DNA of 64,000 nucleotides from a virus (taxonomy: Duplodnaviria; Caudoviricetes): IMG/VR virus record IMGVR_UViG_3300021431_004524, positions 96,001 through 160,000 of that record, one strand, 5' to 3'. The notes under the pieces were generated by a model, which saw only the letters and a list, made by a program, of their open reading frames with translations, was not told where the DNA came from and searched no databases. This document shows positions 3,160 through 46,206 of the stretch, one piece after another. Each line of letters opens with the position of its first letter. Positions within the stretch are counted from its first letter, which is position 1. Made by a program: the position numbers and the translations under genes.

Positions 3160-4946
3160 AATATCAGTTAAATACACGGTTCATCAGAAATGACCTGGTT
3201 CCGATTGAATTATACGATTATTCAAGTGACGAACTGCTTGGTGATGAATTTAAGGATAAAATGTTGCTTACTTGCTATTCAAATGGAGAATTAACTTTTG
3301 GTAAGGATGCAAGTATAATGGCCATGTATGAACAATATATGGTCAATGACGATTTTATATCTTCCACAGCATATAATTTTAGCACTATTTATCATCCTTA
3401 TGGTTTAAATAAAGAAAATCGCTCATTTTCAATTATTTATAACAAATATTTCAACCTTGAAGTTGAAAGAACAAGTGTTACTACTGAGTTAGTAGATGGT
3501 CAACCACAAAAAACATGGTGGTATATATGGTTTAAGGGCAGTCATTTATTTGATATAAGTGGTGGTAATACATATACATTGTATCTTACGTTTGACGGTC
3601 CTAATGGATATAATGAAGACGAGCCTTTTGAATTGGAAGTTAATGGTTCAACATTTGTAACGAGTTCTATACTTAGGTTTTCTTATAAAGATGTTTTGGA
3701 TAAGATTGAACTTAACGGTGTTAAACTTGAGGATGTTATTTTCTATGAAGAAGATGGACAAACAGTCAGTGATGTATCGAGGGTGAGATTTTTCCGTGAC
3801 AATTTCGTATTTACCACCGGCATGTTCCAATTGTTTCTTGATAGGGCAATGGCAACGATTTCTTTACCGATTGAGCAGAAATTTGCCAGTGACTTATATC
3901 AGGATGACAATATACGTGAGCATTTTACGAATGCTGAAATCAAAAAGTCCATTAATAAGATAACTGAAATGGAAAAGGATGTGTATCATCCTGTTATATG
4001 GGATTCAGAAGACGATAAAGTAAAAAATGAAGTTTATAAAATAAGATTTAATCTACATTTCAGAGAACATAGAGGTGATGATTGGCTTGCAGATGCGGAT
4101 ACGTATTGGAATGGTGTAAATCCTGCCAAATTAGAGCCTATTGATGGTTATTTTACTTATTCTAATCCAGAACAACAGTCTGATTTGCTTACGTATTTGA
4201 ATTTTACTGACAAAGATGTACGCTATCAGAAAAATAAACTAAAGAAATCGTTTTTAAGAGTCATGTTTTTTGATTCAATGAATCCGGCTAATCAGAATAT
4301 GCTTGCATATTATACGATTTTCATGGATAGTGGAAATTATTTCAGTAAATATGCAAGATATATAGAGGCTGAAGGGTATAGAAAAATCAGTAAAACACCG
4401 GATGACACCGGTAAATATGACATAAAGGATAAATTAACGGGAATAAAAGTAGATAGAGAGCCAACAATAGATAAGGACACCGATATTGATGATATTGAGG
4501 AAGTTAGATTAAGTTCTCAGTTTGTCGTAGAGGATAAATATATGTCTGATGCTTCGAGTGAAGGTTTCTATCTTTATCTGTGGAAAGATAATTTCTTAGG
4601 TACATATCCTCAGAATATATACATGAAAGTGGAGTTTAACCATGCGGGATATGGAAGAACTATTCCGTTTATGTGCCCGTTTAAAGACCCGACTAAGAAT
4701 GAGGGTAACGGTTTCAAGTCATTTAGTGAGATATTAGATGATTGGTCTAGTAATGATAAAAAATACGGTATAGTAAAGTATTCAAAATATTCATACATAC
4801 ATTTTAAGTATAAGTATGACAAGATAAGTGAGAGACACGTATATTATCTTGATGATAAATTTTATGGAACTAAGCCGGATAAAGGTGGTGTCCATTTTGA
4901 AGATAACGCCATAACAATAAATTTATATGAAGCGAAGATAGTTTAA
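3153..4946 (+). CDS. hypothetical protein, probable virion structural protein
   Basis: 597 aa ORF overlapping upstream stop. Confidence 0.55.
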   Translation: MLKYQLNTRFIRNDLVPIELYDYSSDELLGDEFKDKMLLTCYSNGELTFGKDASIMAMYEQYMVNDDFISSTAYNFSTIYHPYGLNKENRSFSIIYNKYFNLEVERTSVTTELVDGQPQKTWWYIWFKGSHLFDISGGNTYTLYLTFDGPNGYNEDEPFELEVNGSTFVTSSILRFSYKDVLDKIELNGVKLEDVIFYEEDGQTVSDVSRVRFFRDNFVFTTGMFQLFLDRAMATISLPIEQKFASDLYQDDNIREHFTNAEIKKSINKITEMEKDVYHPVIWDSEDDKVKNEVYKIRFNLHFREHRGDDWLADADTYWNGVNPAKLEPIDGYFTYSNPEQQSDLLTYLNFTDKDVRYQKNKLKKSFLRVMFFDSMNPANQNMLAYYTIFMDSGNYFSKYARYIEAEGYRKISKTPDDTGKYDIKDKLTGIKVDREPTIDKDTDIDDIEEVRLSSQFVVEDKYMSDASSEGFYLYLWKDNFLGTYPQNIYMKVEFNHAGYGRTIPFMCPFKDPTKNEGNGFKSFSEILDDWSSNDKKYGIVKYSKYSYIHFKYKYDKISERHVYYLDDKFYGTKPDKGGVHFEDNAITINLYEAKIV

Positions 4947-42636: not shown

Positions 42637-43308
42637 ATGGATTCAAGTTGGAAATACCCAAGAACGTTTCACGTCCCGTTCTCAGAAGGGTTACAGAATG
42701 ATGACAGACGTGTTGATGACGATTGGTTTTCCTATTTGAAGGGAAAGGAACTTATTCTTAGCGAAAAATGCGACGGTGAGAATAATTCTATATCTCGTTA
42801 TGGTGTTTATGCTCGTTCTCATGCAGCACCTACAAGGAATCCTTGGTCAATAAACCTATGGGGAAATGACGGACTTTATTGGAGAGTTAAGGATTTGATT
42901 GGTGAAGATGAAATGATTTACGGTGAGAACTTATATGGTGTTCATTCAATTGAATATAACAGGTTGAAGGAATATTTCCATATGTTTGCCGTAAGGGATG
43001 AAGAGAAATGGTATTCTTGGGATGATGTTTCAGAAATGGCACAGATTCTTGATTTGCCGACTGTTCCTGTATTGGAAAGACGTTCATTTGACACTGAGGA
43101 TGAATTAAAGGAACGTGTATTATATTGGATGACGCAAGGCAGTAGGTATGGTGATACTATTGAGGGTGTTGTTATCCGTAATGCAGATAGTTATCCGATT
43201 GATGAGTTTTGCCATAATGTTGTGAAGTATGTACGTAAGAATCATGTTCAGACTGACCAATTTTGGGCAAAGAATTGGAGAAAAGCAAAAATAACGGAAT
43301 ATTATTAA
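42637..43308 (+). CDS. ATP-dependent RNA ligase family protein
   Basis: KYPRTFH, motif I EKCDGEN, GENL, EGVV, KYVR. Confidence 0.85.
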   Translation: MDSSWKYPRTFHVPFSEGLQNDDRRVDDDWFSYLKGKELILSEKCDGENNSISRYGVYARSHAAPTRNPWSINLWGNDGLYWRVKDLIGEDEMIYGENLYGVHSIEYNRLKEYFHMFAVRDEEKWYSWDDVSEMAQILDLPTVPVLERRSFDTEDELKERVLYWMTQGSRYGDTIEGVVIRNADSYPIDEFCHNVVKYVRKNHVQTDQFWAKNWRKAKITEYY

Positions 43309-43327: not shown

Positions 43328-43359
43328 TTTGTGTATTTCAATGATTATTTGTACTTTTG
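43328..43359 (+). promoter_or_regulatory. Bacteroidota promoter for tnpB
   Basis: TTTG-N20-TACTTTTG. Confidence 0.75.
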
Positions 43360-43383
43360 CACTCAGTTAATGAAAAAAAAATT

Positions 43384-44589
43384 ATGAAAAGAGGTTATAA
43401 GTATCGTATTTATCCAACAGAAGAGCAGAAGAATTATTTTAAGGTATGTTTTGCAGCAAACAGATGGTTTTGGAATTATGCTTTAGATAAAATCAATGCA
43501 CAATATGAAAAAGATAAAACACATTTGTCAGCACAATATAAGATTGCACGTGATTTACCATCCTTAAAAAAAGAGGAAAGTACATGTTGGATTGGGCACT
43601 GTGATGCAATGTCTTTTATTTACACGGCGCAAGCACTTGATGCATCTTTTAAGAAGTTTTTCAAGAAAGAAGGTGGGTTTCCAAAATATAAGTCGGCTAA
43701 ATATGATAATTCTTATACAATACAAATACAAGAAAAAGGTAAAACAATCATTGATTGGGATAAATCAATGATAAGAATAGGTAAAGCCGGCGATGTAAGT
43801 ATTGTTTTGCATAGGAAATTTAATGGGGTTATTAAATCGGTAACAGTTTCCAAGAAGAGTTTTGACTATTACGAAGTTTCACTTCTTGTTGATGATAATT
43901 TCGTCAAGCCGTCCGAAAAACGTATAACTACGTATGATGGTACTGTTGGAATCGACCTTGGGGTAAAATCCGATTCAAATGTAATTTTAACTGATGGCAC
44001 TAAATTTCCTGCAATTGAAGTAGGACGTGAAACTAAACGTATTGCAAGACTTAGACGTAGACTTTCCAAGAAGGAATGGAAAAAAACCGGTGAGAAAAGA
44101 TTTTCCAAAAAATATGGTAAGGAAGTTGATGTAAAAGTTCCCTCCAAGAATTACATAAAGTTAAAGAATCGTATTGCGAAACTTGAAGATGAAATTGTCA
44201 GAAAACGTACTTATAATACGCATATGATTACATCTTATGTCGCTAAGAATCCAAACGTCAATACGGTCTGCATTGAAGATTTGAATGTTAAGGGAATGGC
44301 TAAGAACCATCATATTGCAAAGTCCGTAAGTAATGCGAATATGGGTGAGGTTAAAAGGCAACTTGAATATAAATGTGATTGGAATGGAAAGAATCTGGTT
44401 ACTGTTGACAGATTTTATGCAAGTTCACAAATCTGTTCGTGTTGTGGGTTTAAAAACGAAAAGGTGAAGAATTTGTCGGTAAGACAATGGGTCTGTCCGA
44501 ATTGCGGGGTACATCATGATAGGGATGTGAATGCCGCACTTAATATTAAAAATGAAGGATATAGAATTATAACTGAAGGAAAACAGTGA
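43384..44589 (+). CDS. tnpB: TnpB-family RNA-guided nuclease (candidate CRISPR-associated)
   Basis: YKYRIYPTEEQ N-terminus, RuvC GIDLG / IEDL / DRDVNAALNI intact, CSCC-CPNC Zn finger; no transposase adjacent. Confidence 0.92.
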   Translation: MKRGYKYRIYPTEEQKNYFKVCFAANRWFWNYALDKINAQYEKDKTHLSAQYKIARDLPSLKKEESTCWIGHCDAMSFIYTAQALDASFKKFFKKEGGFPKYKSAKYDNSYTIQIQEKGKTIIDWDKSMIRIGKAGDVSIVLHRKFNGVIKSVTVSKKSFDYYEVSLLVDDNFVKPSEKRITTYDGTVGIDLGVKSDSNVILTDGTKFPAIEVGRETKRIARLRRRLSKKEWKKTGEKRFSKKYGKEVDVKVPSKNYIKLKNRIAKLEDEIVRKRTYNTHMITSYVAKNPNVNTVCIEDLNVKGMAKNHHIAKSVSNANMGEVKRQLEYKCDWNGKNLVTVDRFYASSQICSCCGFKNEKVKNLSVRQWVCPNCGVHHDRDVNAALNIKNEGYRIITEGKQ

Positions 44590-44597
44590 ATAAAAAA

Positions 44598-44760
44598 CCC
44601 TACCCAGGTGTATCGGGGATGTTAAGTCTGTGGATTACCCTCTAATGGATGAACGTGATTTATCACCTAAAAAGTTATGGTAAGTTGAATCAGAAAAACG
44701 GTTTACAACAAGTAAACGACCACCTAAGAAGCGATTTTTAGGTAACATTTTTAAAAGTAA
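44598..44760 (+). ncRNA. omegaRNA/reRNA-like scaffold (possible tracrRNA)
   Basis: AAGTCTGTGGA...TTGAATCAGAAA core typical of tnpB 3' regions, hairpins CGGTTTAC/GTAAACG and ACCTAAGAA/TTTTTAGGT. Confidence 0.65.
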
Positions 44761-44791
44761 TGTGGCGTAATCAATGCTTTATTGGAAATAT

Positions 44792-45197
44792 GGTGTATGC
44801 TGTATTAAAATGTTAGGTAAATACAACTGGAGTTGGTTGCATCCATTAGCGACAAAGCGGTGTATGTCATATTAAAATGTTAGGCGAATACAACAGGACT
44901 TCAAACCTACCCTCGAAAAGAACGGGTGTATGCCTCATTAAAATGTTAGGTGAATACAACCAGTAGTTAAGAGCCTCTTAAAGCAATGGGGTGTATACCA
45001 CATAAAATGCTAGGTAAATACAACTCAGACAGTCGAATGTTTCTTTGTCCTTTGGTGTATACTACATTAAAATGCTAGGTAAATACAACTTATTTCCTCT
45101 TGTTTCTTCGCTATTGAGGATGTATGTCACATTAAAATGCTAGGTGAATACAACGACCCGCTATCAAGGTCTTCCAATTGTTTGGTGTATGTTACAT
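44792..45197. CRISPR. CRISPR array, 6 full + 1 partial 36-nt repeats, six 29-31 nt spacers
   Basis: consensus GGTGTATRYNNYATTAAAATGYTAGGYRAATACAAC at 44792, 44859, 44925, 44990 (35 nt), 45054, 45119, 45184 (partial); unique spacers. Confidence 0.92.
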
Positions 45198-45367: not shown

Positions 45368-45412
45368 GGCTTCATGCCGATACTCGTCCGGGTTCGAGTC
45401 CCGGTGAAGCCA
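45368..45412 (+). pseudogene. tRNA-Leu-derived minihelix (acceptor + T arm only)
   Basis: GGCTTCA/TGAAGCC-A identical to tRNA-Leu 40492; D and anticodon arms absent. Confidence 0.7.
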
Positions 45413-45806: not shown

Positions 45807-46206
45807 GGGGATAACAGGAATTTGACAGCAAGTATGAAATGGTCTGTAAGCATGCAGTGTGAAGACTATTACACCTAAATCAATTGGTCGAACAATTAAT
45901 TGGCGAAACAACTTACGCTCTCGCTGCCTAATCGAAGTACAGTAGGTTACTGGCTTAATTCCCTTACAAGGTGAGGGAACGAGACATCACTTAATGAGTT
46001 ATTTTCTGAGACTTGTTAGTATAGTGGTGCAGGGAAATCAGAAATAGTCGGTCTATGCCTTGATGGATTGATGAAATTTAAAAGGATAAGAATGCAATTT
46101 GGTAGTCCAAGTCGTGTTGCATTATGAAAATCAAAATTGAACTAAGCATGTAGAAAGCATATTGTTTCCTTGTTTGGACGAGGTTTCGATTACCTCTATC
46201 TCCACA
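45807..46206 (+). ncRNA. ssrA: tmRNA
   Basis: GGGGATA/TATCTCC-A acceptor with G3-U, T arm, tag ORF 45902-45931 GETTYALAA*. Confidence 0.95.

Follow-up and report, generated by a model that had tools for sequence, protein, structure and literature searches.

We analysed a 64,000-nt stretch (the window), corresponding to positions 96001-160000 of the 235.6-kb IMG/VR virus record IMGVR_UViG_3300021431_004524, which is estimated to be approximately 60% complete. The window is AT-rich, carries 19 transfer RNA (tRNA) genes and a transfer-messenger RNA (tmRNA), and comes from a giant phage that infects Bacteroidota of the gut or rumen. On its + strand it harbors a compact module consisting of a tnpB gene, approximately 200 nt of non-coding scaffold and a CRISPR array, followed by two tRNA-Gln genes (Table 1). 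The module is probably a phage-borne, domesticated TnpB-CRISPR nuclease of the TranC / type V-U kind, in which the omegaRNA of a transposon TnpB has been divided between a tracrRNA (trans-activating CRISPR RNA) and a crRNA (CRISPR RNA).

Table 1. Features of the tnpB-scaffold-array module; positions refer to the window unless a locus of a relative is named.
Feature	Position	Strand	Basis
Promoter-like motif (TTTG 43328-43331; TAnnTTTG 43352-43359)	43328-43359	+	Recurrence upstream of tnpB
tnpB, 401 aa (P0001)	43384-44589	+	Domain matches, ISDra2 alignment, fold
omegaRNA-derived scaffold (putative tracrRNA body)	44590-44742	+	Ten-lineage alignment and RNAalifold
Anti-repeat, inverted partial copy of repeat positions ~12-28	44737-44754	+	Inverted-repeat search, duplex energies
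Degenerate repeat-like tail (to ~44775) and 16-nt leader or "spacer 0" (44776-44791)	44755-44791	+	Inference
CRISPR array, six repeats, six spacers, truncated terminal repeat	44792-45197	+	
Repeat 1	44792-44827	+	
Repeat 2	44859-44894	+	
Repeat 3	44925-44960	+	
Repeat 4 (35 nt)	44990-45024	+	
Repeat 5	45054-45089	+	
Repeat 6	45119-45154	+	
Partial repeat 7	45184-45197	+	
Short spacers of relatives (15-21 nt)	L016 4022-4037; L016 4337-4352; L018 4464-4478; L020 4596-4616; L021 4406-4426		

TnpB and the conservation of the module

P0001 matches the Pfam families HTH_OrfB_IS605, OrfB_IS605 and Cas12f1-like_TNB and scores 283 bits against the NCBIfam model guided_TnpB (cut-off 100). The protein is alignable along its entire length with ISDra2 TnpB (8bf8/8h1j; E 1e-47), D191, E298 and D381 of its RuvC triad being placed on the catalytic D191, E278 and D361 of ISDra2. 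The triad and the four zinc-finger cysteines (CxxC...CxxC) are unchanged across 16 relatives, confirming the intact 401 aa TnpB with a D-E-D triad that had been read from the window. The AlphaFold model (mean predicted local distance difference test score of 84.6) has ISDra2 TnpB as its top PDB match (8h1j, E 7e-28), followed in order by ISFba1 TnpB, LaTranC and Cas12f. The sequence match with LaTranC is confined to the C-terminal half (E 9e-32), and that with Cas12f is weak both in sequence (E 7e-6) and in fold (template modelling score ~0.45). No Cas12 subtype model reached its cut-off with P0001, the best being c2c8 with 69 bits against a cut-off of 350. By these comparisons P0001 groups with the transposon TnpBs and not with a Cas12 subtype. 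With its catalytic residues intact, it may be capable of crRNA-guided DNA cleavage.

The protein ends just past RuvC-III, without the C-terminal tail of ISDra2 TnpB. Additionally, it has a 20 aa insertion at residues ~230-253 (window ~44071-44142), which is predicted as a beta-hairpin lying between a pair of RuvC helices. This insertion is restricted to the larger of two array-bearing groups of the family and is found neither in the second group, of 385 aa proteins, nor in array-less cousins. It was considered as a marker of array use and rejected, because the 385 aa group bears arrays without it.

The tnpB gene is present in a single copy in the 235-kb record (one TNB-domain match). Searches of the same ~60% complete record for a Y1 transposase (tnpA), in which the left and right ends of an element were not sought, and for Cas1 both returned nothing, which extends to the whole record the claim of the original prediction that transposase and cas1 are missing. 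Being single-copy and without tnpA, it is probably a domesticated tnpB rather than a mobile IS200/IS605 element.

Conservation of the module was studied in the DNA around eleven relatives with 96 to 44% TnpB identity, drawn from at least six phage genome contexts. Identity to P0001 is 96% for L012, 82% for L013, L014 and L015, 72% for L016, 69% for L017, 67% for L018 and L019, 65% for L020, 58% for L007, 54% for L113 (over the 115 C-terminal residues present in that locus), 50% for L021, L022 and L023, and 44% for L024 and L025. All eleven relatives have tnpB, a scaffold of ~200 nt and an array of 36-38-nt repeats on the same strand; every close homologue examined flanks an array, and none of these phages was found to hold the array without tnpB, the arrangement that had been named in advance as speaking against a joint unit. 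Their neighborhoods vary, with an RNA ligase and tRNA island in the window and Thy1, a T4 gp13-like gene, methyltransferases or SprT elsewhere. Since the surroundings differ while the module stays constant, tnpB, scaffold and array travel together. Upstream of tnpB, the TTTG and TAnnTTTG boxes align in six of eight relatives from different genome contexts, and we take them to be a putative Bacteroidota promoter; a scan for sigma-70 promoters and terminators gave no signal above chance.

The sister clade presents a different picture. A three-copy k-mer scan of 80 phage TnpB loci of this clade (32-39% identity) detected no array just downstream of tnpB, and a stricter scan for repeat pairs in 64 of them found no downstream pair in 61; as its own controls showed that the pair scan overlooks degenerate two-repeat arrays, these blanks are not absolute. 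In the remaining three loci, two matches were not array-like and one was a two-repeat mini-array. The latter lies at 3905-3996 of L053, a 140-kb viral contig, ~300 nt downstream of a TnpB with 36% identity, and has 36-nt repeats of the GTTG...CAAC class around a 20-nt spacer. A single repeat-like unit was also sought downstream of the array-less cousins, without clear enrichment over the controls.

The whole TnpB family comprises more than 100 protein clusters, with proteins of 385-433 aa. A maximum-likelihood tree built from 48 proteins, in which P0001 falls among phage TnpBs, resolves two supported groups of array-bearing members, the 385 aa group and a group of 20, the larger of which has the array-less IMG/VR clade as its sister (97/84). 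Unrooted, the tree is compatible with both one and two origins of the array association. As the lineage is widespread and exceeds 100 protein clusters, it is old and not nascent in the phage of the window, contrary to the wording of the original prediction.

Scaffold, anti-repeat and array

The scaffold is built from a core that is conserved, a stem with long-range pairing, two hairpins that vary and, at 44723-44742, a terminal hairpin. An alignment of ten lineages is good over its first ~150 nt, and RNAalifold predicts 28 pairs, 12 of them with compensatory changes; no Rfam family covers it. By this covariation the scaffold is a structured RNA, and the omegaRNA-like structure of ~200 nt initially proposed behind tnpB is conserved in the relatives. 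The core motifs of the scaffold also occur at 140-330 of L132, in an RNA that follows the 3' end of a classical high-GC TnpB without an array, which fits the descent of the scaffold from an omegaRNA.

Directly after the terminal hairpin, each lineage carries an anti-repeat, complementary to the central part of that lineage's own repeat. An inverted-repeat search pairs 15 nt of the window's anti-repeat with 44807-44821 at 87% complementarity, and with repeats 1-3 the anti-repeat forms a perfect duplex of 9 bp. In seven of nine lineages this segment is closer to the reverse complement of the repeat than to the repeat itself, which identifies it as an anti-repeat and not a decayed direct copy. 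RNA duplex energies were calculated for the anti-repeats of nine lineages against the nine repeats and evaluated with 20,000 permutations. The mean energy is -12.4 kcal/mol with the own repeat versus -5.8 kcal/mol for cross pairs, and the own repeat ranks first in 8/9 lineages; no permutation was as low (0/20,000, p ~5e-5), a value that is not a strict probability, as the nine lineages are related. The anti-repeat of L012 differs from that of the window by one base and pairs with both repeat variants of the window. In silico, this lineage-specific fit points to an omegaRNA divided between a crRNA and a tracrRNA that carries the anti-repeat.

The complementary stretches of 7-8 nt on which the repeat-scaffold link had originally been built are real, but the scaffold's last hairpin has CACCTAA (44721-44727) and TTAGGT (44738-44743) as its arms. 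TTAGGT:CACCTAA as the key contact of the repeat was rejected for this reason, and because other lineages do not share the match. Between anti-repeat and array, the repeat-like tail (44755-~44775) is similar to the repeat's 3' half in the window, L013, L018 and L007. The last 16 nt before repeat 1 are semi-conserved across lineages and may represent a leader-repeat junction rather than a guide.

The array consists of six repeats, five of 36 nt and one a nucleotide shorter, and a truncated seventh, with spacers of 31, 30, 29, 29, 29, and 29 nt, in order. The repeats start with GGTG and end with CAAC. They diverge chiefly at positions 8-13, and the stretch paired by the anti-repeat and the 3' tail are conserved. 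Repeats are perfect in L007, L020 and L021.

An identical TnpB (P0003) occurs on three contigs, of which L013 and L014 have the same array and L015 differs in the leader-side spacers. L012 and L013 have one diverged trailer-end spacer in common and no other, and the window and L013 have homologous truncated terminal repeats on the trailer side. Spacer change is concentrated on the scaffold-proximal side, as in polarised CRISPR adaptation, and the arrays are alive and turning over in the family. Relatives also hold spacers of 15-21 nt beside those of 29-31 nt, often in a scaffold-adjacent or trailer-end position (Table 1); this length range presumably fits a TnpB-type guide. In L021, one spacer is duplicated in tandem.

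Two spacers of distant members, at 4647-4676 of L018 and 2211-2240 of L024, overlap by 20 nt on opposite strands, suggesting that they were taken independently from a common target with no strand preference. Together they define a 42-nt stretch of that target. A 19-nt spacer of L024 (2156-2174) matches the core of the family's own scaffold (15/15 positions in the scaffold of L024, 16/17 in that of L007) and may be directed against rival copies of the system or be self-derived.

The module is located inside a tRNA island of 19 genes (38.6-48.1 kb of the window). An RNA ligase gene (42637-43308) lies directly upstream, a synteny retained in L012-L014, and the island also contains the phage-encoded tmRNA (45807-46205, tag GETTYALAA). 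Behind the two tRNA-Gln genes there is a tRNA-like fragment of ~45 nt (45368-45412) with 26.5 bits, below the Rfam tRNA gathering score of 29. In L021 a tRNA-like sequence (4725-4800) stands directly 3' of the last repeat, as tRNA-Gln almost does in the window, and tRNA-processing enzymes might thus set the 3' end of the array transcript.

Proposed mechanism and alternative explanations

The mechanism that we propose for RNA processing, DNA cleavage, targets and spacer uptake is deduced from sequence. The three parts of the module would be transcribed in one direction, and TnpB would bind the omegaRNA-derived scaffold. The anti-repeat would then pair with the middle of each repeat, setting the conserved 3' tail of the repeat and the next spacer at the position where an omegaRNA usually has its 3' end and guide. 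Such a complex would locate spacer-matching DNA beside a target-adjacent motif (TAM) and cut it with the RuvC site D191/E298/D381, the likely targets being competing phages or other mobile elements. New spacers would enter scaffold-proximally, probably inserted by host adaptation enzymes, which are proposed because the phage is without cas1/cas2; insertion by the host could be helped by the repeat class, 36-nt GUUG...CAAC as in type VI-B of Bacteroidales.

That the module acts as one unit, as the original prediction of a phage-borne TnpB-CRISPR intermediate held, is supported by its conservation down to 44% TnpB identity, by the blank loci of most array-less cousins and by the lineage-specific fit of the anti-repeats. 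Several points weigh against it. Anti-repeat duplexes are short, with 6-13 Watson-Crick pairs, and the duplex with repeats 4-6 is weakened by a T-to-C change. The pairing test draws on related lineages, as noted above. The window's own array, with its degenerate repeats, may be old or ageing. The repeats fold like and resemble type VI-B direct repeats, so their use by a host Cas13b is possible. Moreover, no protospacer was found for any spacer in GenBank phages, IMG/VR, JGI metagenomes, 401 Prevotellaceae genomes or the phage's own genome, and consequently there is no TAM, no target class and no strand test. Specifically, blastn of the window and L007 arrays against 50,697 GenBank phages gave noise only, and all spacers compared with the phage's own 235 kb and with every locus of the comparison revealed no self-target. 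Exact IMG/VR scans with three spacer cores yielded no protospacer, one of them returning just its own array (L115), and one JGI metagenome scan gave three matches whose flanks were mismatched, hence due to chance. A single, marginal 24-nt match of the window array among the Prevotellaceae genomes was discarded as a protospacer because it spans a spacer-repeat junction.

The alternative that survives best, although we consider it unlikely, is that the array is an orphan of type VI-B style which loads a host Cas13b against the transcripts of rival phages, and that TnpB is an ordinary, unlinked neighbor. In its favor, a search for two repeats with the termini of the family at CRISPR spacing retrieved 12 viral contig stretches in IMG/VR and, among 185,579 species genomes, eight loci that all belong to Bacteroidales. 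Cas13b (NF038190, E 1e-127 to 1e-246) adjoins four of these eight. At the 23 interior positions, which lie outside the search pattern, phage and Cas13b repeats agree in 10-16, compared with 8.3 on average and 13 at the 99th percentile in composition-preserving shuffles; the window, with 15, is one of six TnpB lineages out of nine that lie above this percentile. Predicted hairpins of the phage repeats and of those adjacent to Cas13b have the same architecture, with outer stem, internal loops and inner stem in common. Repeats of 36 nt with GUUG/CAAC ends, spacers of ~30 nt and a locus free of cas1/cas2 are also the published description of type VI-B (Smargon et al., bioRxiv 10.1101/092577), which the relatives fit exactly and the window more loosely, given its GGTG start and one 35-nt repeat. 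Furthermore, arrays of this kind occur on the viral contigs L107 and L112, where no TnpB-like gene was detected next to them.

An orphan array for Cas13b would nevertheless leave unexplained the fixed order, strand and distance of the module in 11/11 relatives, as well as the inverted 3' end of the scaffold that tracks the repeat from lineage to lineage, since Cas13b needs no tracrRNA. The repeat loop is A-rich in the window, L007 and L020, not poly-U as published for type VI-B, and the window repeats start with GGTG instead of GTTG. The opposite-strand overlapping spacers fit DNA targeting better. The record itself has no match to the Cas13b model NF038190, in a search whose control genomes were also blank; the model otherwise scored bacterial array neighbors at E 1e-127 or better.

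Very unlikely, in our judgement, is that TnpB uses a cis omegaRNA with only the 16-nt flank (44776-44791) as its guide, the repeats being a relic of earlier duplications or a decoy that soaks up host Cas13b (an RNA anti-CRISPR). The repeat-like tail and 16-nt segment before repeat 1 do resemble an intact omegaRNA with its guide, the window repeats are degenerate, with poor pairing of repeats 4-6, and the 15-21-nt spacers of relatives point the same way. However, spacer length is kept tight (29-31 nt), spacers vary among phages with an identical TnpB, and the perfect repeats of L007, L020 and L021 indicate that arrays turn over. A decoy would have no need for variable spacers, and the semi-conservation of the 16-nt segment across contexts is more in keeping with a leader motif than with a guide taken from the flank. 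Finally, a chance adjacency of an insertion-sequence-type tnpB and an unrelated repeat array, which the original prediction left open because the link within the window alone consists of short complementarities, is refuted by the occurrence of the module in every relative examined, with a lineage-specific anti-repeat, and by the lack of anything comparable downstream in most array-less cousins (32-39% identity), and we give it practically no credence; the adjacency of TnpB, scaffold and array is meaningful.

Returning to a domesticated TnpB presumably supplied with guides by its array, the repeat comparison suggests that the phage repeats belong to the 36-nt GUUG...CAAC class found beside cas13b in Bacteroidales, a lead rather than a result. 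The likeness hints that arrays were captured or that host machinery takes up the spacers. A second, distant TnpB-like family lies beside arrays of the same class (L116/L117, L111, L110/L106, L114, L123); its members have 27-40% mutual identity and ~28% identity to P0001, in the RuvC half only. In L106/L109 (IMGVR_UViG_3300028833_000109) and L110/L108 (IMGVR_UViG_3300028888_000323), this family (353-454 aa) appears to be flanked by two arrays, one upstream and one downstream, which differ from each other within the same repeat class, and fragmented open reading frames follow the downstream array. This repeat class has at least three further TnpB-like lineages beside it, namely the 385 aa group, the second family (L106/L110/L111/L114/L116/L123) and L053, so that capture may have occurred repeatedly. 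Tentatively, the arrays could be of type VI-B class, captured from or interoperable with those of a Bacteroidales host, and not duplications of omegaRNA ends, an origin that we find possible yet doubtful. If so, the gain of 30-nt spacers by TnpB modules without cas1/cas2 would be explained by the host adaptation machinery that type VI-B arrays also use, and one phage transcript could feed both TnpB (repeat-spacer, DNA) and the host Cas13b (spacer-repeat, RNA), or compete for Cas13b.

Intermediates between TnpB and Cas12 show the path from a selfish transposon nuclease to an adaptive immune effector. The value of this family lies in its more than 100 protein clusters, purely phage-borne and TnpB-sized, in a split guide that is legible from its lineage-specific fit, and in arrays that turn over without adaptation genes. 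The type VI-B repeat link offers a testable answer to the origin of spacers in TranC / type V-U systems, and the 401 aa TnpB is a compact candidate nuclease for genome editing, with a defined tracrRNA-crRNA junction.

Comparison with known systems

The kind of system described here is already known (TranC / type V-U), and the window holds a new member, possibly of an already named clade; the link of its repeats to host type VI-B arrays may be the new part. TnpB-array associations, which by inference emerged ~50 times, are grouped as type V-U candidates, and the literature reports arrays near phage TnpBs of 401 and 433 aa. TranC intermediates were named by Jin et al. (Cell 2025, doi 10.1016/j.cell.2025.09.004), who showed the omegaRNA split according to PMC13565253, PMC13639567 and bioRxiv 10.64898/2026.03.27.714800; the set includes LaTranC (PDB 9jfo/9jfq) and the phage-borne CauTranC9. 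Common to TranC and the window are a TnpB-sized RuvC nuclease beside an array without adaptation genes and an omegaRNA (right-end RNA, reRNA) that is apparently split, one part being a crRNA and the other an anti-repeat-bearing tracrRNA. In the preprint (bioRxiv 10.64898/2026.03.27.714800), CauTranC9 of clade 9 is a protein of ~414 aa from a Caudoviricetes genome, with 38-bp repeats and without the ISDra2 C-terminal domain or an expanded REC/WED. By description only, the window family is similar, with its 385-433 aa proteins ending past RuvC-III and a 38-nt repeated unit in L021. On the other hand, LaTranC, the sole TranC in PDB, is more distant from P0001 than ISDra2 TnpB is. The family's repeats fall in the type VI-B class, whereas TranC arrays are mostly of "unknown subtype" in that preprint, and its spacers are ~30 nt, mixed in relatives with those of 15-21 nt.

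Among natural solved structures, the ISDra2 TnpB-omegaRNA complex of IS200/IS605 (8bf8, 8exa, 8h1j) is the closest relative by sequence and the best by fold. Both have the catalytic triad, the zinc finger and a structured RNA 3' of the gene; the window differs by its lack of tnpA, single copy, putatively array-supplied guides and missing C-terminal domain, and its main group by the 20 aa beta-hairpin insertion. With type V-U systems and Cas12f it has in common a small RuvC effector with a tracrRNA and short repeat:anti-repeat duplexes, but P0001 stays under every cut-off of the named Cas12 subtypes and the record has no Cas1.

As regards type VI-B, the interior and fold of the phage repeats resemble the Cas13b-adjacent repeats of Parabacteroides, Dysgonomonas and Odoribacteraceae. 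Beside the phage arrays stands TnpB instead of Cas13b, along with a scaffold that has an anti-repeat, and the repeat loop is A-rich, not poly-U; a TnpB-type guide is also ordered repeat-then-spacer, in contrast to the spacer-then-repeat of Cas13b. Type VI-B arrays acquire spacers in trans through a type II-C module (Hoikkala et al., PMC8092290), which offers a route by which the phage TnpB arrays could likewise be supplied.

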